The position numbers were made by a program, and so were the translations under genes. The notes under the pieces were generated by a model. The model saw only the letters and a program-made list of their open reading frames with translations. It did no database searches and was not told where the DNA came from. From a virus (Duplodnaviria > Heunggongvirae > Uroviricota > Caudoviricetes), in the IMG/VR virus record IMGVR_UViG_2778261201_000003, positions 1 to 11,715 of that record: a stretch of DNA of 11,715 bases; one strand, written 5' to 3'. Shown here piece after piece: positions 1,065 through 11,339 of the stretch. Positions within the stretch are counted from its first letter, which is position 1. Each line of letters starts with the position of its first letter.

Positions 1065-1187
1065 TCTACATTTGAAAATGCACGGTAATTCTGAAATGCA
1101 AAAAATCAACCAAACCAGCGCAATGCCTGAAAAAACTGACGTTCACTGGAGTGGTCGGTTTAGCGTTGCACCAATGCTCGATAGGAT
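1065..1187 (+). repeat. attL-side copy of the dusA 5' region (native chromosomal version)
   Basis: About 81% identical over ~110 bp to 10302-10411 (21 mismatches by hand alignment); identical blocks include ATGCCTGAAAAAACTG and ATGCTCGA; similarity stops after ~1187. Confidence 0.65.
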
Positions 1188-1200
1188 GTACCGTTTTTGA
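1078..1200 (+). pseudogene. dusA: Displaced 5' fragment of native dusA (40 codons then TGA)
   Basis: Translates to MHGNSEMQKINQTSAMPEKTDVHWSGRFSVAPMLD then diverges (RMYRF*); parallels the N-terminus of the intact dusA at 10302. Confidence 0.6.
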
Positions 1201-2597: not shown

Positions 2598-3170
2598 TCA
2601 TAATTCTGTGCTGGTGGCAGGAATTAATTTCTGCCAGATAGCGGAAACATATTTTGCCTGATGACGAGCATCAGCCAGGGCGTTGTGCCGTTCGCCATCG
2701 AAAGGCATGTCCATTTTTGGGTCGAATCCGATGGAACGCCCAAGCGTAACGATCGTGCGCGCATCGTGATCATTCCAGTACGCCCATGGGCAGATTTGTC
2801 CTGCTCGCTCATAAGCTCCGCGTAAAATTACGTTGTCGAAGTTGGCTCCGTTACCCCAGACTTTTAAATATTTCGTATTGTCTGCGTGCCGATTAATGAA
2901 ATGGCTCAGTTCAGAGAGTGCATCGCTGATCGACAAAGTATCATCAATACAGATTGCAGCTCGTGCTTCAGGGCTTTGTTTCAACCACCACAGGATGGTG
3001 TCGCCGTCAGGTGTGGCCCCTTGCTCCATAGCACTGTCCAAGCTGACAGCCGTATAGAATTCTTGTCCGATGTCTCCGGTTTCTGGGGTGAAGAACACTG
3101 CGCCAATAGAAACGATCGGCGCATCCTTATTTTTCCCCATCGTCTCAAGGTCGATCATTAAGTTGTTCAT
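2598..3170 (-). CDS. DEDDh-type 3'-5' exonuclease (DnaQ-like fold)
   Basis: Motifs MIDLETMG (Exo I), WGNGANFD (Exo II) and HNALADA (Exo III); start ATG at 3170 overlaps the upstream stop (ATGA) with GGAGG upstream. Confidence 0.8.
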   Translation of the reverse strand: MNNLMIDLETMGKNKDAPIVSIGAVFFTPETGDIGQEFYTAVSLDSAMEQGATPDGDTILWWLKQSPEARAAICIDDTLSISDALSELSHFINRHADNTKYLKVWGNGANFDNVILRGAYERAGQICPWAYWNDHDARTIVTLGRSIGFDPKMDMPFDGERHNALADARHQAKYVSAIWQKLIPATSTEL

Positions 3171-4429: not shown

Positions 4430-5347
4430 TTAAGTTGTTGGATTTTGGCTTTTATCTTCTTTGTAAGAAAGAAGGTCACACATCAAATTAACTACCTTGC
4501 TGAATTGGAAAAGGTCAGTGCCAGTCTGATGACGCCACTGGAATGCTTTATCATCTTCATCATTAAATGTCTGAGATTGAGTATTGATGCGCGAAAAATG
4601 GAAATTTTCGGTAAGAATGAAGGTCACACCGCAACCGGATAACTCCATTTTATCAGCAGTGAAACTACTACTAAGGCTATCGGCCAGTTCGCTTTGAATT
4701 GACTCATGCTCAGCTGAGTAGCGAATAATTTCCTTTTGATCTGCGTAGCGTGATAGCTGAATATAATTCCCGACAGTGAATCCTTCAAATGCATTGGCTG
4801 CACCATTGATGTAGTTCTTCAGGCGTGTAGTCAGTCCATTCTTGATATCACTGATGTTGATTGTTTCTGTTTTCACTGAACCGACAACCTTAATCAGCAT
4901 TGCGCATACCATACCGGCTATTATTTTATTGGTTGTGTTGATTACCAATAATTTCTCATCAGTGCTGTACAATGCAAGAATCAGCGTAGACTTAACAAAT
5001 GCCTGTTTGCATAGATCTACTCGTACGTTATCAATAATGGCCAGTCGTTCGGCACGCTTTAATTTATTCCCGGACATATTTTCGATTGTTTGGATTCGAG
5101 AATTAGCTTCTTTCATGACGACATGTCGGGGAATTATTTTCTGATCATGACGGATTACCATTGCGTACCCACCAGATATCGGAGTTACCAGTTCACCAGT
5201 GACAGGATTCTCTACAAAAGAGGACCGTGAAAATTCTGTTTCCCCGATTTCAGAATAAGGGAGTTCGAGAAGATGCCCTTCAATAGCCTGTATACTAGGT
5301 AATGTTGCTCGGTACACAATTGCGTTACGAAATTTTGGTAATTTCAT
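4430..5347 (-). CDS. RdgC-like recombination-associated protein
   Basis: Start at ATG 5347 (MKLPKFRNAIVYR...) with GAGGAAAA RBS, 305 aa; N-terminal FRN..VYR and KIIPRHVV segments parallel E. coli RdgC. The open frame extending to 5497 is GC-rich non-coding read-through. Confidence 0.7.
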   Translation of the reverse strand: MKLPKFRNAIVYRATLPSIQAIEGHLLELPYSEIGETEFSRSSFVENPVTGELVTPISGGYAMVIRHDQKIIPRHVVMKEANSRIQTIENMSGNKLKRAERLAIIDNVRVDLCKQAFVKSTLILALYSTDEKLLVINTTNKIIAGMVCAMLIKVVGSVKTETINISDIKNGLTTRLKNYINGAANAFEGFTVGNYIQLSRYADQKEIIRYSAEHESIQSELADSLSSSFTADKMELSGCGVTFILTENFHFSRINTQSQTFNDEDDKAFQWRHQTGTDLFQFSKVVNLMCDLLSYKEDKSQNPTT

Positions 5348-5397
5348 TCTATTTTCCTCTGCACAAGATATTAGTTTCTCCACAAAACAGAGAAGAA

Positions 5398-5745
5398 CAC
5401 CTGCGGTGGCAGCCGCCCGGATGGATTGGGTTATGAGCCCGTCGTCCGGTGATGCTCTTCTCTGTTTTGTAAAAAGAGCGGTACCAGCCGGAAGCAAGTG
5501 TACAAACTGGTACCGCGAGGACTACACACAGCATAAAGTTGTGGTGCCGGGTGCCTCCCGGTGCCTGGCGAAGGTTGCACACCAGGCGGGTGGGTATCCA
5601 CAGAAGGTCGACTGTCAGCCTCAACCTTAACCCGCGTGCGCTGAGCCGCATTCACCACAACGCTAAGGATTCTCTCTGGTTGAAAATACTTAGCTGTTAT
5701 GTGCCTGTCTTTTCACCACTTCAGGCTCGGTGGTATCCTTTTAAG
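5398..5745. other. GC-rich, hairpin-dense non-coding element (candidate structured RNA or regulatory region)
   Basis: Four overlapping ORFs in different frames, all Arg/Pro/Gly-rich and not protein-like; perfect 10-bp inverted repeat GCGGTACCAG/CTGGTACCGC (5478-5516); further stems CCGGG/CCCGG (about 5546-5560), GCCTGG/CCAGGC (about 5564-5588) and GTGG/CCAC (about 5592-5603). Confidence 0.3.
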
Positions 5746-6217: not shown

Positions 6218-6421
6218 TTAACCTCCAGATTTCCGCGCATCTAAAGGCGCATTCTCATTTGGTGTGAACTGAATAGTTGTGCTGATATTGATTAATGCCC
6301 CGACACACAAGACTACGCACTCAGAGCAGATAGCAACTTCATCTTTTCCGCCTTTGGCGATGATTTTTTTTGCCTGCAGCTCGTTTGCGCCACAAAACGA
6401 GCATGTGAAATAACGGTTCAT
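6218..6421 (-). CDS. ClpX-type zinc-ribbon small protein
   Basis: YFTCSFCG...AICSECVVLC gives a CxxC...CxxC pattern closely resembling the ClpX N-terminal zinc-binding domain; start chosen at ATG 6421 (alternative ATG 6439 has no RBS). Confidence 0.6.
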   Translation of the reverse strand: MNRYFTCSFCGANELQAKKIIAKGGKDEVAICSECVVLCVGALINISTTIQFTPNENAPLDARKSGG

Positions 6422-6519
6422 TTGCGCTCTCTTACACATAGTATTTAACGAATCATCCGGTCATTCATACGCCACCGGCGGCTACTTCGTGGGCGTCCTG
6501 CCTGTTCGTTGTTTCGCTT

Positions 6520-6592: not shown

Positions 6593-7267
6593 TTAGGCTT
6601 TGATTTTGTATCTTCTTGGTTTTCCTGAGAAAATCACTGTACCAATTATAGAGCAATTACCGTTGATCTTAATGTAAGGCTCAGGCCAGTTTGGGTTTAA
6701 CGCTTTGAGATAACGCTGTGTCCCATCTTCTATCAACCTTTTGAAGGTGGTTTCACCTGTATCGTGCATCAATGCAATAACGTCGTCACCGTGGCAGGCA
6801 GGGACTTCAGGATCTACAAAAATCATGTCTCCCGGGCGGTACTCATCAATCATTGAATCACCAATCACCCGCAAGATATAAGTCATTTCGCCACAGGGTA
6901 CAGGGCAGGGATAAGTTTCTGCTGTGCTCAAATCAACCTCAGAATAGCCAACTTCTTTCCATGCTCCGGCCTGTACCCATGATATGACAGGGACTAACGT
7001 TATTTGTTTGTTAGTGATTGAAACATCAGGTTTTTTTGTGATGTTCGTGGTCTGGTGTTCTTGATCAAGCCATCCGACAGGCAGGTCGAAACATTTTTCG
7101 ATGTGCCGTGCCATGCTGTCACCGATATTTTTAGTAGCACCATCTCCCATAAACCTGCTGGTCTGGGTTGGCTCGCGATCAATCATGGTGGCAAAGGAAG
7201 AATTCCCGCCAACACCATCTCTCAGTTTTCTGGCGTTAGACCGCCGGATGTCATGGACTGTTTTCAT
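6593..7267 (-). CDS. CI-like repressor with N-terminal HTH and C-terminal S24 (LexA-like) autopeptidase domain
   Basis: 224-aa ORF; candidate Ala-Gly cleavage site (VQAGAW); Ser in VIGDSM and Lys in TFKRL form the Ser/Lys dyad; divergent from the Cro-like gene. Confidence 0.85.
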   Translation of the reverse strand: MKTVHDIRRSNARKLRDGVGGNSSFATMIDREPTQTSRFMGDGATKNIGDSMARHIEKCFDLPVGWLDQEHQTTNITKKPDVSITNKQITLVPVISWVQAGAWKEVGYSEVDLSTAETYPCPVPCGEMTYILRVIGDSMIDEYRPGDMIFVDPEVPACHGDDVIALMHDTGETTFKRLIEDGTQRYLKALNPNWPEPYIKINGNCSIIGTVIFSGKPRRYKIKA

Positions 7268-7589: not shown

Positions 7590-8102
7590 ATGAGGCTAAC
7601 CGTGGGTAAGCATCACTGGAAAGTAGAAAAACAGCCTGAGTGGTACGTGAAAGCTGTCAGAAAAACTATCGCGGCGTTGCCGGGGGGTTACGCTGAAGCT
7701 GCTGAGTGGCTGGATGTAACAGAGAACGCTTTATTCAACCGCCTTCGTGCAGATGGCGATCAGATTTTCCCGCTGGGATGGGCAATGATTTTACAGCGCG
7801 CGGCTGGCACTCACTACATTGCGGATGCTGTCGCACAGTCTGCTGGTGGGGTGTTTGTATCGCTTCCTGAAATTGAGGAAGTAGAGAACGCCGATATAAA
7901 CCAGCGCCTGCTGGAAGTCATCGAACAGATCGGGAGTTACTCAAAGCAGATTCGTTCGGCAATCGAAGATGGGGTATCTGATTTTCCCCTGTCCCCACAT
8001 CCCGTTTCGCTGCTTCTCCCAAACCAACCTTTCAAATATTTTTCTGAATCAGGTGATATTTCGCCTCTTCTCCTGTTTTTACAACAGGAGAAGCACTCAT
8101 GA
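7590..8102 (+). CDS. CII-like phage regulatory protein (putative, 186 CII/CP76-like)
   Basis: 170-aa ORF directly after the cro-like gene; size and position match CII of 186-type phages; real start may be GTG 7602 (GAGG RBS); stop overlaps the invertase start (ATGA). Confidence 0.5.
   Translation: MRLTVGKHHWKVEKQPEWYVKAVRKTIAALPGGYAEAAEWLDVTENALFNRLRADGDQIFPLGWAMILQRAAGTHYIADAVAQSAGGVFVSLPEIEEVENADINQRLLEVIEQIGSYSKQIRSAIEDGVSDFPLSPHPVSLLLPNQPFKYFSESGDISPLLLFLQQEKHS
8067..8093. promoter_or_regulatory. 27-bp perfect palindrome covering the invertase RBS
   Basis: CTTCTCCTGTT-tttac-AACAGGAGAAG (11-bp arms); the right arm contains the invertase Shine-Dalgarno AGGAG. Confidence 0.4.
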
Positions 8103-8662
8103 TTTACGGGTATGTTCGTGTATCAACAAATCATCAGGATACAGAGTTGCAACGTCTTGCACTTGAGTCAGCTGGCTGTGAGCGAATTTATGAAGAATAT
8201 GCCAGTGGCAGAACAGCTAATCGCCCTGTGTTAAAGGAATTAATTTCGGTGATGAAAAGTGGAGATGAGTTGATTGTCTGGAAGCTAGATCGGATAGGGA
8301 GAAATGTGCTACATGCGCTATTGATGTTTCAAAATCTGCACGAAAAAGGCGTTAATTTTCGGAGTATTACAGATGGTGTAGACCTGAAAACAGCAAGTGG
8401 TCGCTATAATTTCCGTAATATTCTTTCTGCTGCGCAGTATGAATCTGATTTGAATAGCGAGCGAACTTTAGCTGGTTTGGCTATTGCCAGATCCAAAGGC
8501 CGGATTGGTGGGCGTAGACCGAAGTTTAGCGACGAGCAGTGGCAACAGATGGGAGCGCTCATAGCGGCAGGGAAATCACGGCGTTATGTTGCACGTATCT
8601 ATAACGTTGGGCTATCAACCCTATATAAACGATTTCCTGTTACTGGCATTCAAACGAAATAA
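8099..8662 (+). CDS. Serine recombinase, Hin/Gin/Pin-family DNA invertase
   Basis: 187 aa; N-terminal MIYGYVRVSTNHQD with catalytic Ser; resolvase fold motifs (LDRIGR); C-terminal HTH (GKSRRYVARIYNVGLSTLYKR). Confidence 0.85.
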   Translation: MIYGYVRVSTNHQDTELQRLALESAGCERIYEEYASGRTANRPVLKELISVMKSGDELIVWKLDRIGRNVLHALLMFQNLHEKGVNFRSITDGVDLKTASGRYNFRNILSAAQYESDLNSERTLAGLAIARSKGRIGGRRPKFSDEQWQQMGALIAAGKSRRYVARIYNVGLSTLYKRFPVTGIQTK

Positions 8663-8702
8663 TTTAAAAGCAATTTAAAGAGTTATTTGTCTAATGTTGG
8701 AA

Positions 8703-8738
8703 GCCGCAGCCACGTCGTATGCAAGAACGTGCTGCGGC
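8703..8738. other. GC-rich hairpin in the convergent intergenic region (possible bidirectional terminator or binding site)
   Basis: GCCGCAGC(C)ACG pairs with CGTGCTGCGGC across a 13-nt loop; no clear U-tract on either strand. Confidence 0.35.
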
Positions 8739-8805
8739 TGGCTGGCGAACTTTCGATAGTGCGAGTATTGAATGATTTCCAGCCGTTACCGATTTTACGT
8801 GTTAA

Positions 8806-9054
8806 TTAGTGAACAAACCACTCGTCAGCAGATTCCCAGGTATCTTTCAGAGTCTCCTGAACAAAAGTTTTTGCAGAATCCTTATCTGCGGTGCGTGTAA
8901 CAGAAAGGCCATCGTTGCTGGTGGCTTTTACGATCACCTCTACATCGTCATAACGTTTACTGATGCGTCGGGTTAATTCTTCCTTTAACGCATCCACAGC
9001 ACCGGTTGGCATTTTAGTCATTTTTTCTTTGGCTATGCAGATTTCAATACGCAT
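8806..9054 (-). CDS. DinI-family DNA-damage-inducible protein
   Basis: 82 aa, [11 protein letters not shown]...[11 protein letters not shown] parallels E. coli DinI (MRIEVTIAK...ETWESADDWFV); two LexA boxes immediately upstream. Confidence 0.85.
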
Positions 9055-9067
9055 AAAAGTCCCTCTA

Positions 9068-9115
9068 TACTGTGTTTGTATACAGTATTATTTTTAACTG
9101 TATGGATAAACAGTG
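9068..9115 (-). promoter_or_regulatory. Two tandem LexA (SOS) boxes over the DinI-like promoter
   Basis: TACTGTGTTTGTATACAGTA (9068-9087) and AACTGTATGGATAAACAGTG (9096-9115), both CTGT-N8-ACAG; minus-strand -35 TTGACA (9119-9114) and a -10 TAAAAA-like hexamer overlap them. Confidence 0.75.
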
Positions 9116-10213
9116 TCAAGAGGTCTTATTTCTGCTCCTTTGGAGCTCTTCAAAACGATTATGTAAAGATTTCGGATACAGTTCGGTATATACCTGCCAT
9201 AGCACGTTTAATGAACGATGCCCTGTGACCTGGGCGACTTCCTCAATACTAAAACCAGCCTCAAATAAGCGACTTGCCCCTTCTCTACGCAAATCATGGT
9301 ATCGCAGATCCTTAATACCTAATTTGCTTCTTACCCTCTGAAATCCCGCAGTAACAGAAGTGCTGTTATATGGAAAAATGAATTCCGATTTTTTGGGCTG
9401 TCGTTGGACGATATCCCAGGCTTCCCCAAGCAAGGCTACTTTCATGTGGTTGCCTTCCTTTTTGCGTGGATCTTTCCTGTCTCTTACGAGTATAGATTTT
9501 TGTTCCTGGTCGAGATCTTCCCATCGTAACCGGCATACTTCTCCGATCCGCATACAGGACCACACAGAAAATTTGAGGATATCAACGAACGGAATTTTTG
9601 AGCATTTATGAGTAGATCGTTGTTGAAGGCCTTCAATGAGCATGTCCAGTTCATCAGATGCTGGTCTACGATTACGACGGTTTGATTTACCAATCAAACC
9701 AAGTTTAAGTAGATATGGGCGAGCGCTTTTCGCCGGGTTTGATGTGTAATTAATTCCGTATACAGGTTTGGCCGCATCCAGAACACTGCCAAGATAACTA
9801 ACATCGTGGCTGACTGTTGCTGGACCTGCACCAGCGTTGTTTCTTAGCCTGCAATGTTCAATTACGTCATTTTCTGTCAGTTCAGATAGTTTGATCGCGG
9901 AGATGTCACTATCCATAAGCAGTTCCAGCACATATCTTTTAGTACGGCCTGCTTTACCTCCGGCATTTGGGTCATTTAAATATTTGTGTAGTAAGTCACG
10001 GACTGTAAGTCCGTCAACTGCATTTGATGATGGAATGCCATATAGATCTAATTCCATCACTTTCTGTGTTCCCCATGTTTTGGCATGAGCATGTTTAGGG
10101 AATGTTTTGCTTTCCCTGTAAGTGATAACACCTTTTTCTTTGATAATCACATTACAGCGATAGCGTGGTGTGCCATCGGATTTTAGTCGTTTCTCTATGT
10201 TATAGTACGCCAT
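9116..10213 (-). CDS. int: Tyrosine recombinase, dusA-associated integrase
   Basis: 365 aa; C-terminal catalytic region with R...HDLR...GH...Y pattern (RYHDLRREGA, VTGHRSLNVLWQVYTELY); divergent from and adjacent to the dusA 5' end. Confidence 0.9.
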   Translation of the reverse strand: MAYYNIEKRLKSDGTPRYRCNVIIKEKGVITYRESKTFPKHAHAKTWGTQKVMELDLYGIPSSNAVDGLTVRDLLHKYLNDPNAGGKAGRTKRYVLELLMDSDISAIKLSELTENDVIEHCRLRNNAGAGPATVSHDVSYLGSVLDAAKPVYGINYTSNPAKSARPYLLKLGLIGKSNRRNRRPASDELDMLIEGLQQRSTHKCSKIPFVDILKFSVWSCMRIGEVCRLRWEDLDQEQKSILVRDRKDPRKKEGNHMKVALLGEAWDIVQRQPKKSEFIFPYNSTSVTAGFQRVRSKLGIKDLRYHDLRREGASRLFEAGFSIEEVAQVTGHRSLNVLWQVYTELYPKSLHNRFEELQRSRNKTS

Positions 10214-10288: not shown

Positions 10289-10411
10289 GAAATGTTCAAA
10301 AATGCACGATAATCATGAAACACAAAAAATTAATCAAACCAGCGTGATGCCTGAAAAAACTGGTGTTTACTGGAATTCTCGGTTTAGCATTGCTCCTATG
10401 CTCGACTGGAC
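10289..10411 (+). repeat. attR-side copy of the dusA 5' region (island-supplied 5' end fused to native dusA)
   Basis: About 81% identical to 1065-1187; downstream of ~10406 the sequence continues as intact dusA. Confidence 0.65.
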
Positions 10412-11339
10412 GGACAGACATTGCCGCTATTTCTTGCGTCTGCTTTCCCGCAATACGTTGCTGTATACCGAAATGGTGACCACAGGGGCGATTATTCACG
10501 GTAAAGGTGATTACCTGGCGTACAGTGAAGAAGAACATCCGGTAGCGTTGCAACTCGGCGGTAGCGATCCGGCGGCGCTGGCACAGTGTGCGAAGCTGGC
10601 AGAAGCGCGTGGATATGATGAGATCAACCTGAATGTCGGCTGCCCGTCTGACCGGGTGCAGAACGGCATGTTTGGTGCGTGTCTGATGGGTAATGCGCAG
10701 CTGGTTGCCGACTGTGTGAAAGCGATGCGCGATGTGGTGTCGATTCCAGTGACGGTGAAAACGCGTATTGGCATCGATGACCAGGACAGCTATGAATTTC
10801 TCTGCGATTTCATCAACACTGTTTCCGGCAAAGGCGAGTGTGAGATGTTTATCATCCACGCACGTAAAGCCTGGCTTTCGGGGTTAAGCCCGAAAGAAAA
10901 CCGTGAAATCCCGCCGCTCGATTATCCGCGTGTGTATCAACTGAAGCGTGACTTTCCGCATCTGACAATGTCGATTAACGGTGGTATCAAGTCGCTGGAA
11001 GAGGCCAAAGCACACCTGCAACATATGGATGGCGTGATGGTCGGGCGCGAGGCGTATCAGAATCCGGGTATTCTGGCGGCGGTAGACCGGGAGATCTTTG
11101 GTTCCTCGGATACCGATGCCGATCCGGTGGCGGTAGTGCGCGCCATGTATCCGTACATTGAGCGTGAACTCAGCCAGGGGACGTATCTCGGCCATATTAC
11201 CCGGCATATGCTGGGTTTGTTCCAGGGTATTCCTGGCGCGCGGCAGTGGCGGCGTTATTTAAGTGAAAATGCCCATAAAGCGGGTGCTGACATTAACGTG
11301 CTGGAACACGCGCTCAAACTGGTGGCGGATAAGCGTTAA
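10302..11339 (+). CDS. dusA: tRNA-dihydrouridine synthase A
   Basis: 345-aa ORF recognised as E. coli DusA throughout; the first ~35 codons ([32 protein letters not shown]) differ from the displaced copy at 1078 and are island-derived. Confidence 0.95.

Follow-up and report, generated by a model that had tools for sequence, protein, structure and literature searches.

LexA-controlled dinI genes of prophages are already established in Salmonella, where the dinI homologues of the Gifsy prophages were described as being repressed by LexA and inducible by mitomycin (Lemire et al., 2011, PMC3121763), with 4.6- to 23-fold induction by nalidixic acid (Merida-Floriano et al., 2021, PMC8072944, Table 1). 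In the prophages Gifsy-1, -2 and -3, as at the locus described here, a prophage gene of the DinI family has its own promoter, with a LexA box that closely precedes a TAGAGGGA-type ribosome site; TAGAGGGA is common to the leader of our dinI-like gene and that of Gifsy-2 dinI, and the Gifsy-2 box (TACTGTGTTTATATACAGTG) reads almost as the reverse complement of one of our two boxes (box 2). Nevertheless, the Gifsy genes have a single box, overlapping the -10, whereas here two boxes occupy the promoter spacer and the start site. Gifsy dinI heads an operon that also contains an antirepressor gene and irsA, whereas the gene studied here stands alone; the Gifsy repressors are not cleaved, whereas the island studied here encodes one of the CI/S24 type; and Gifsy-2 dinI follows the replication genes and precedes NinG and a Q homologue, whereas our gene lies between a tail-fibre/invertase module and int. 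The Gifsy DinI and the 82-aa protein share only 43% identity. A search for an antirepressor gene 3' of the dinI-like gene found no minus-strand ORF of at least 20 aa from 8806 to the convergent invertase gene, which, together with the S24 self-cleavage motifs of the repressor, sets the locus apart from the Gifsy-type dinI-antirepressor operon.

Other systems share part of this organization. Chromosomal dinI of E. coli (b1061; structure 1GHH; RecA-DinI cryo-EM structure 7YWA, PMC9926225) encodes a protein of the same family and length and is repressed by LexA, but it has a single box (ACCTGTATAAATAACCAGTA) over the -10, another leader and a canonical U-tract terminator, and is not mobile. Coliphage 186 Tum is, as our gene very probably is, a LexA-controlled phage gene with a DinI-like domain (PMC3121763, discussion); its 146-aa product is an antirepressor, with the antirepressor function in the N-terminal half and the DinI-like domain in the C-terminal half, whereas here the DinI domain occurs alone. 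A small RNA, DinR, is processed from the 3' UTR of Klebsiella dinI mRNA (PMC10907235), which resembles our predicted transcript in being LexA-controlled and in having a conserved 3' end before the terminator; it differs in that the Klebsiella gene is a chromosomal dinI orthologue and that DinR relies on a Klebsiella-specific stretch pairing with ftsZ, a pairing for which we found no signal here. SOS promoters with several LexA boxes are known in Salmonella, with three boxes in recN and two in lexA (PMC8072944, Table 1). These resemble our promoter in having more than one box, but they belong to host repair genes and not to mobile cassettes. The recN promoter has one LexA box in the -35/-10 spacer and another across the transcription start.

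The following features were identified in the window, that is, the whole 11,715-nucleotide stretch analysed:

1075 to 1191, plus strand: left dusA 5'-end repeat (att region), with its partner at 10299-10415
6593 to 7267, minus strand: CI-type repressor with S24 self-cleavage domain (Pfam Peptidase_S24, E 1.5e-26)
8703 to 8738, minus strand: G+C-rich terminator-type hairpin at the end of the cassette (fold z-score -3.7), followed by CUUCCAAC, with no U-tract
8740 to 8784, minus strand: 3' UTR stem-loop 1, with the stem GGCUGG...CCAGCC and the near-invariant loop AAAUCAUUCAAUACUCGCACUAUCGAA
8806 to 9054, minus strand: intact DinI-family gene, 82 aa (Pfam PF06183, PHROG 189 and PDB matches)
9061 to 9066, minus strand: Shine-Dalgarno AGAGGG, read from the sequence, 6 nt before the ATG
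9068 to 9087, minus strand: LexA box 2, TACTGTATACAAACACAGTA, core 9070-9085, covering the predicted transcription start; predicted operator
9090 to 9095, minus strand: predicted -10 hexamer AAAAAT from the promoter scan (AATAAT in the diverged copy L187)
9096 to 9115, minus strand: LexA box 1, CACTGTTTATCCATACAGTT, core 9098-9113, forming the -35/-10 spacer; predicted operator
9114 to 9119, minus strand: -35 hexamer TTGACA from the promoter scan (10 of 12 matches for the promoter), mean identity 0.98 over 65 distinct cassettes
9116 to 10213, minus strand: tyrosine integrase of the dusA-targeting type (Pfam Phage_integrase), adjoining the dusA 5' end

Both boxes are exact matches to CTGT-N8-ACAG, as an earlier reading of the sequence alone had claimed, and both sit in the 61 bp that separate the integrase stop codon (9118-9116) from the ATG at 9054, box 2 ending 13 nt short of the ATG. 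The window holds three such exact matches against 0.21 expected, a number reached in none of 200 shuffles. Scoring against a LexA matrix, which that reading had proposed as a check, was performed on 20-mers with a heterology index (HI) of the Berg-von Hippel/Lewis type; the matrix derives from a published set of 18 LexA sites of E. coli K-12 (PMC3009722, Table 4) instead of the original Lewis 1994 table, so that absolute values differ from published HI. Box 2 scored 2.8 and box 1 scored 5.8, inside the range of the 18 training sites (0.3-9.3; 0.6-12.8 with leave-one-out), and the next best position in the window scored 15.4. An HI of 5.8 or lower was reached in none of 300 first-order Markov simulations of the window, the best simulated value being 6.06. 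Both boxes are thus of LexA-operator quality, scoring like real sites. The third exact match (3034-3049), located within the coding region of an exonuclease, has a G+C-rich spacer and an HI of 17.0 and was rejected as a non-site.

The two boxes coincide with a predicted promoter, TTGACA-N18-AAAAAT, in which the 18-nt spacer corresponds approximately to box 1, the expected start falls under box 2 and the -35 hexamer contains the integrase TGA stop codon. The promoter scan alone is not significant (two promoter-like sites were called over 800 bp, where 1.8 would be expected), and the weak points of the prediction are a -10 with only four of six matches and the 18-nt spacer. This promoter is also annotated for phage mEp460 in its GenBank entry, with an overlapping -10 (TAAAAA) and a 17-nt spacer; a literature search on mEp460 found no account of the dinI-like promoter. 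Scan and annotation thus agree with the placement of the boxes on the -35, the spacer and the start region that had been proposed. The same reading took the gene to be SOS-regulated, which the conservation described below and the experiments on the Gifsy dinI homologues (PMC3121763, PMC8072944) make very likely. In the undamaged cell, LexA dimers on box 1, between the -35 and the -10, and on box 2, at the start, would block binding and initiation by RNA polymerase; upon DNA damage, RecA filaments would promote LexA self-cleavage, both operators would be vacated and the dinI-like gene would be transcribed as a single-gene unit. LexA binding and SOS inducibility at this promoter are what we infer from box quality, position and homology. 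Since the integrase, directly upstream and in the same orientation, is transcribed toward the cassette, some expression could be LexA-independent read-through.

The gene was assigned to the DinI family by the sequence-only reading, and the profile searches bear this out: the product matches the Pfam DinI model over its full length (PF06183, positions 1-63 of 63, E 1.1e-19, 70.9 bits against a cut-off of 24.2), aligns at positions 71-149 of the 151-position profile of PHROG 189, 'RecA filament binding protein DinI' (E 5.7e-31), and matches the PDB entries 1GHH/7YWA (E 3.7e-13), the similarity to 1GHH being full-length, with 46% identity to E. coli DinI. In the latter, the residues that contact RecA form a hydrophobic pocket (L13, L21, W71, W77 and F78) and an acidic patch (E24, E69 and D76) (PMC9926225). 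In the 1GHH/7YWA alignment all eight are identical or conservatively replaced in the 82-aa protein (L13/M15, L21/L23, E24/E26, E69/D71, W71/W73, D76/E78, W77/W79 and F78/F80, DinI residue first), and M15, L23, E26, W73, W79 and F80 are invariant among 13 homologues. The product would therefore be expected, from these residues, to bind the groove of the RecA filament like E. coli DinI. Conservation of the coding sequence at the first, second and third codon positions is 0.95, 0.98 and 0.87, respectively, the third varying most, which argues for purifying selection across the family.

We noticed that promoter, dinI-like gene and 3' UTR together, from approximately 9119 to approximately 8700 on the minus strand, constitute a widespread mobile cassette and are not specific to this island, a point that the earlier reading had missed and that emerges from comparison of the copies. 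The promoter and both boxes are retained in 42 of 44 distinct sequences upstream of DinI-like genes, behind at least seven different and unrelated upstream junctions and with many downstream ones, which argues for mobility. Homology across contexts starts at the -35 and ends just past the terminator-type hairpin, and in phage BLAST matches it is confined to approximately 8698-9122 where the integrase is absent. Where the coding sequences have an identity of 0.69-0.73, that of the promoter and boxes is 0.68-0.92, whereas upstream of the -35 it is only 0.28-0.48. The boxes change mostly where LexA consensus is silent: conservation in box 2 is 0.996 at the CTGT/ACAG columns against 0.87 in the spacer, the N8 spacers of L249 and L187 are changed with CTG/CAG retained, and box 1, whose spacer sequence differs in diverged copies, is sometimes a CTGG variant. 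Depending on the copy, the boxes are 26 to 29 bp apart; such variable spacing favours independent binding of LexA over binding that is phased and cooperative. Among 5426 complete E. coli genomes, 1408 carry the cassette at full length, and the number of matching places per genome with cassette-related sequence has a median of 2 and a maximum of 9, partial copies counted. A query with a 13-sequence alignment added nothing to the near-identical loci found with one protein, the diverged homologues being queried separately, and a scan of the genome contigs gave only four loci. A homologous segment bounded by its own promoter and hairpin, between unrelated flanks, is the organization of a moron, an autonomous accessory cassette of phages, with the hairpin of this copy lacking the U-tract. 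We consider it highly probable that a self-contained, SOS-controlled prophage DinI cassette of this kind has its promoter-operator in this region.

The copy studied here was said to lie inside an island, and the int-dusA arrangement agrees with this. The integrase belongs to the family targeting dusA, known from dusA-integrated islands (Farrugia et al., 2015, PMC4482086), and lies beside the 5' end of dusA (at 10302), a segment of which is duplicated at the far end of the island, where there is a displaced ORF for the dusA N-terminus (1072-1200). The direct repeat comprises 117 nt, is 81% identical and has a spacing of 9224, delimiting an island of approximately 9.2 kb; the same int-dusA arrangement is present in ETEC H10407 and in strain wlxctx60. 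Genes for replication, lysis and virion structure are missing from the island, which shows a deletion junction near 7973, found in none of the 5426 complete genomes, and by this gene content and its bounding repeats it is a defective E. coli prophage, a remnant at the dusA 5' end. Its repressor had been credited with a LexA-type autocleavage domain; beside the Peptidase_S24 match, alignment to the C-terminal domain of lambda CI recovers VQAG for the Ala-Gly site, GDSM for the Ser motif and TFKRL for the Lys motif.

A further suggestion, that the DinI of the island tunes induction of the island itself or of co-resident prophages, is no more than plausible. DinI, UmuD and lambda CI share the same determinants in the RecA groove (PMC9926225), so that competition between DinI and lambda CI is reasonable. 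The most likely effect would be that the 82-aa protein stabilizes RecA filaments and competes with slowly cleaved clients such as UmuD and CI-type repressors, so that more damage would be needed for mutagenesis to begin and for CI-controlled prophages to be induced. Since the island is defective, its own induction would amount at most to derepression or excision. Non-polar dinI deletions in Gifsy-1 and Gifsy-3 left induction unchanged (PMC3121763), but these phages use antirepressors and not cleavable repressors, so the deletions are no direct test of tuning. If the predicted SOS control and RecA binding hold, the many E. coli strains with this cassette make at least one extra modulator of the RecA filament during the SOS response, which could shift the thresholds of SOS mutagenesis and of induction for CI-controlled prophages, among them Stx phages bearing the cassette. 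The conceptual gain is small, because the Gifsy genes are an established precedent; in practice, the analysis delimits the cassette clearly, describes its arrangement with two operators and supplies a conserved candidate RNA element.

That the palindromes are not LexA operators at all, having arisen by chance or serving as sites for the CI/Cro proteins of the island or for the adjacent invertase, could be argued from their being A+T-rich within an A+T-rich intergenic region. We consider this very improbable, since no simulation reached even the score of the weaker site, both boxes match the full 20-bp E. coli LexA matrix beyond the CTGT/ACAG core, consensus positions are retained while spacers vary among diverged copies, the cassette is also carried by phages whose immunity regions are unrelated and which have no invertase, and box 2 is almost the same as the Gifsy-2 dinI box, which experiments showed to be required. 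Somewhat unlikely, though to be taken far more seriously, is the explanation that the boxes are real LexA sites and the gene is neutral, inherited, SOS-inducible cargo without consequence for the defective island or its host. The gene losses of the island and its singular junction near 7973 are in keeping with this, as are the Gifsy dinI deletions without measurable effect on induction and the chromosomal dinI already present in E. coli; against it stand the intact ORF, the purifying selection seen at the codon positions, the retained RecA-contact residues and the several matching places (median 2, maximum 9, partial copies included) in genomes with cassette-related sequence.

The LexA-regulated DinI cassette that we favour could also carry a payload that is selected partly as RNA, the 3' UTR (8784-8703) acting as an SOS-induced regulatory RNA, released or in cis, with the protein only part of the function; we regard this as doubtful, and equally doubtful that the segment is an undescribed regulatory RNA module of lambdoid phages, placed under SOS control here via the LexA boxes. 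The 3' UTR of the cassette is better conserved than its coding sequence: stem-loop 1 with its loop is 0.87 identical in cassettes whose coding sequences are 0.69-0.73 and whose proximal 3' UTRs are 0.43-0.52 identical, and the loop (CAUUCAAUACUCGCACUAUCG) is almost invariant across 55 distinct copies. The terminator-type hairpin shows compensatory changes in eight stem pairs across copies and is followed by a U-tract in many of them, and DinR (PMC10907235) offers a precedent. However, the stem of stem-loop 1 hardly varies, which makes covariation uninformative there; an Rfam scan of 8500-9300 at a permissive threshold gave as its only match a 22-bit hit to CssrB on the opposite strand, far short of the gathering score of 76 bits; the duplex energy of the 3' UTR with the ftsZ leader (-70 to +30) was no better than that of shuffles (p = 0.40), and pairing with the leader of the gene itself was marginal (p = 0.05). 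The copy in the window also lacks the U-tail needed by Hfq-dependent small RNAs, and the conservation could reflect a terminator, an mRNA-stability module or frequent recombination in the segment. A literature search for the loop sequence gave no match, and the EHEC literature on dinI concerns the chromosomal gene or other small RNAs. A terminator scan of 8600-9400 found no canonical terminator, and since the hairpin has no U-tract in this copy, leaky termination is possible, as are transcripts antisense to the invertase gene. The 3' element also occurs without the dinI coding sequence, which would fit a function of its own: a copy is present in the b region of phage lambda (24160-24256), and a remnant lies between ykgJ and ecpE in K-12-type genomes and beside ykgJ in most E. 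coli.

The sequence-only reading had proposed two boxes of the form CTGT-N8-ACAG, to be scored against a LexA matrix, in front of a DinI-family gene. Exact matches were found at 9070–9085 (box 2) and 9098–9113 (box 1), the whole window holding three such motifs vs 0.21 expected:

10213–9116, minus strand: tyrosine integrase
9115–9096, minus strand: box 1, CACTGTTTATCCATACAGTT, HI 5.8
9087–9068, minus strand: box 2, TACTGTATACAAACACAGTA, HI 2.8
9054–8806, minus strand: DinI-family gene, 82 aa

With a heterology index (HI, lower values being closer to validated operators) derived from 18 LexA sites of E. coli K-12 (PMC3009722, Table 4), both boxes score inside the range of these training sites (HI 0.3–9.3), the next best position in the window having HI 15.4. 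When the window was simulated 300 times with a first-order Markov model, HI ≤5.8 was never reached. Boxes 1 and 2 are real and far above chance, and LexA control of the dinI-like gene is very likely. The third motif (3034–3049, within the exonuclease gene; HI 17.0, G+C-rich spacer) has almost certainly arisen by chance.

On the minus strand, the order is TTGACA (9119–9114) - CTGTTTATCCATACAGTT - AAAAAT (9095–9090) - AA - TACTGTATACAAACACAGTA - T - AGAGGG - ACTTTT - ATG. Box 1 forms the spacer of the predicted promoter, its 20-mer covering the final two −35 bases, and box 2 starts two bases past the predicted −10 and spans the expected start site; the overlap with −35, spacer and start region claimed earlier is thus recovered on a predicted promoter. 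The promoter scan (2 found vs 1.8 expected) is not significant alone; the mEp460 depositors annotated the same promoter element, and the −35 and −10 hexamers are kept across contexts. In a diverged copy AATAAT replaces AAAAAT, which favours the reading with an 18-nt spacer. The integrase stop TGA (9118–9116) lies inside the −35 hexamer (9114–9119). We also noticed that the cassette (promoter, boxes, gene and structured 3′ UTR) has its edge exactly at the int 3′ end, so that the junction itself makes up the final codons of int. No same-strand ORF of at least 20 aa was found downstream of the dinI-like gene; the transcription unit is monocistronic.

DinI-like loci were gathered from IMG/VR and genomes, and 44 distinct 120-nt upstream sequences were extracted (encoded proteins ~60–100% identical to that of the window). 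Both boxes are present at HI ≤10 in 42 of the 44, 26–29 bp apart centre to centre. At least seven unrelated sequence classes lie upstream of the −35, homology beginning at TTGACA; in cassettes with a coding identity to the window of only 0.69–0.73, identity is 0.68–0.92 over the promoter-operator block and 0.28–0.48 over the 25 nt upstream of the −35. In the two most informative lineages (loci L249 and L187), the N8 spacers differ and CTG and CAG are kept, which is the pattern expected of LexA sites. A few copies (L173, L178) have broken boxes, so box decay does happen and can be seen.

Where the integrase is absent, homology in the phage collection ends at ~8698 and ~9122. Of 5426 complete E. 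coli genomes, 1408 have the cassette at full length; in a genome with any match, matching places number 2 at the median and 9 at most (partial copies counted). The promoter-gene-hairpin cassette is mobile, a moron, and not island-specific. IMG/VR provirus records often start exactly at the dinI-like ATG (L011, L012, L026, L031; match 1–246) and others ~60 nt upstream of it (L008, L010, L016; match 61–307); automated provirus boundaries therefore often remove the promoter and LexA boxes.

The DinI identity of the product, also claimed from the sequence alone, is secure: its match to Pfam DinI spans the whole model (E 1.1e-19), and it also matches PHROG 189 ‘RecA filament binding protein DinI’ and two structures of E. 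coli DinI, 1GHH and 7YWA (E 3.7e-13). Identity is 46% with E. coli DinI and 43% with Gifsy-2 DinI. In DinI, L13, L21, W71, W77 and F78 form the pocket for RecA F203, and E24, E69 and D76 face RecA K232, R243 and K245 (Gao et al., PMC9926225). The aligned equivalents (M15, L23, W73, W79 and F80; E26, D71 and E78) are all identical or conservative, six of the eight being invariant among 13 homologues. Codon variation across the family is greatest at third positions, and the gene looks functional from its sequence.

The best-supported reading is the classical one, in which LexA on both operators would hold the promoter closed, RecA-stimulated LexA cleavage would then open it, and the resulting DinI-like product would bind RecA filaments. 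Experiments on Gifsy-1, -2 and -3 have already established that prophage dinI homologues can be under LexA control, a kind of which the cassette would be a further case. In Gifsy the protein builds up after mitomycin C, the damage response of the locus is lost when araC-PBAD replaces the LexA box and promoter segment (PMC3121763), and nalidixic acid raises expression of the genes 4.6- to 23-fold (PMC8072944). The action of the protein once made we infer; stoichiometric amounts of DinI stabilize filaments, and larger amounts inhibit the cleavage of UmuD (review PMC6590174). Two strong operators should give tight repression, and induction later than that of chromosomal dinI would be a guess; strictly phased cooperative LexA binding is argued against, because the box spacing varies (26–29 bp). 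As DinI and lambda CI use the same determinants of the RecA groove (PMC9926225), competition with slowly cleaved CI-type repressors is reasonable on structural grounds. The repressor of the island belongs to this type, its VQAG, GDSM and TFKRL aligning with lambda CI, in agreement with the LexA-type autocleavage domain noted earlier. That the cassette DinI might tune prophage induction is a plausible idea only; Gifsy dinI deletions had no induction effect, in a system that is antirepressor-driven (PMC3121763). In all, the dinI-like gene is an ordinary and well-behaved accessory gene of phage, very probably SOS-regulated, with a tidy two-operator layout.

Box 2 is nearly the Gifsy-2 dinI box, TACTGTGTTTATATACAGTG, in reverse complement, and both loci have the ribosome-site segment TAGAGGGA. 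However, Gifsy-2 and E. coli chromosomal dinI each have one LexA box, over the −10, whereas the cassette has one in the −35/−10 spacer and one over the predicted start site. Gifsy-2 dinI is followed by an antirepressor and irsA (PMC3121763), unlike the cassette with no ORF ≥20 aa downstream, and lies after replication genes, before NinG and a Q homologue; the cassette lies between tail-fibre/invertase genes and int, and chromosomal dinI at a fixed E. coli locus between pyrC and bssS. In the diverged L249 and L187 cassettes, box 1 is CACTGTATAAATAACCAG(TT/CC), a near-match to the single chromosomal box ACCTGTATAAATAACCAGTA (L269 1990–2030), and L249 also shares the following TATATTCAAC with the K-12 dinI promoter. 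Sequence hints at a common origin of the chromosomal promoter and the phage cassette.

The window is a piece of the E. coli chromosome in which a ~9.2 kb island sits within the dusA 5′ end:

10302–11339: dusA, in the right part of the window, with pspG
1075–1191 and 10299–10415: dusA 5′-segment repeat bounding the island (117 nt, 81% identical)
8099–8662, plus strand: Pin/Hin-type invertase
6593–7267, minus strand: CI-type repressor with Peptidase_S24 domain
between invertase and repressor, reading leftward from dusA: truncated CII-like ORF and Cro-like gene
leftward early region: includes RdgC-like protein and exonuclease

The same int-dinI module closes full-length prophage in ETEC H10407, strain wlxctx60 and phages SKA5 and mEp460. 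In the island, everything between the CII-like gene and the invertase is gone, including replication, lysis, head and tail genes; this makes it a defective member of the dusA-targeting prophage class of Farrugia et al. (PMC4482086), for which phage production is impossible. The junction, near 7973, lies within ORF 7590–8102, a CII-like ORF (PHROG 101, residues 5–129) fused to sequence normally preceding the invertase; of 5426 complete E. coli genomes, none shares it. Among the island's other products are an RdgC-family protein (4430–5497), from a further recognized class of RecA modulators, and a protein of 73 aa whose C4 zinc finger is of the ClpX type (6218–6439).

The ~100-nt 3′ UTR is unusually conserved, with a two-hairpin element (8703–8784, minus strand):

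8784–8740, minus strand: stem-loop, loop AAAUCAUUCAAUACUCGCACUAUCGAA near-invariant in 55 distinct copies
8738–8703, minus strand: G+C-rich hairpin, compensatory changes at eight pairs

In lineages with coding identity 0.69–0.73, the stem-loop (near-invariant loop CAUUCAAUACUCGCACUAUCG) is 0.87 identical, above the coding sequence, and the UTR just past the stop codon 0.43–0.52. Phage lambda carries the element with no dinI gene (24160–24256, b region; L272 1501–1597), between ea47 and the next leftward ORF. K-12-type genomes have it with a decayed dinI-like 3′ end between ykgJ and ecpE (L270 2501–2652), this remnant being present in most E. coli. A regulatory RNA is a lead rather than a finding: DinR, which in Klebsiella is released as an sRNA from the dinI mRNA 3′ end (PMC10907235), offers a precedent, but a terminator or mRNA-stability module accounts for the data equally well. 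Searches for ftsZ pairing gave no signal, and for the element no Rfam family or literature match was found; a weak CssrB (Shigella chromosomal sRNA B) match opposite the hairpin (8681–8736, plus strand; 22.4 bits, E 0.032; gathering score 76 bits) is probably noise. In many copies the hairpin is followed by a U-tract, which the window copy lacks on either strand. The dinI-like gene and the invertase are convergent, with ~40 nt (8663–8702) separating the hairpin from the stop codon of the invertase (8662); because of this short gap and the missing U-tract, SOS-induced transcripts could read antisense into the invertase gene.
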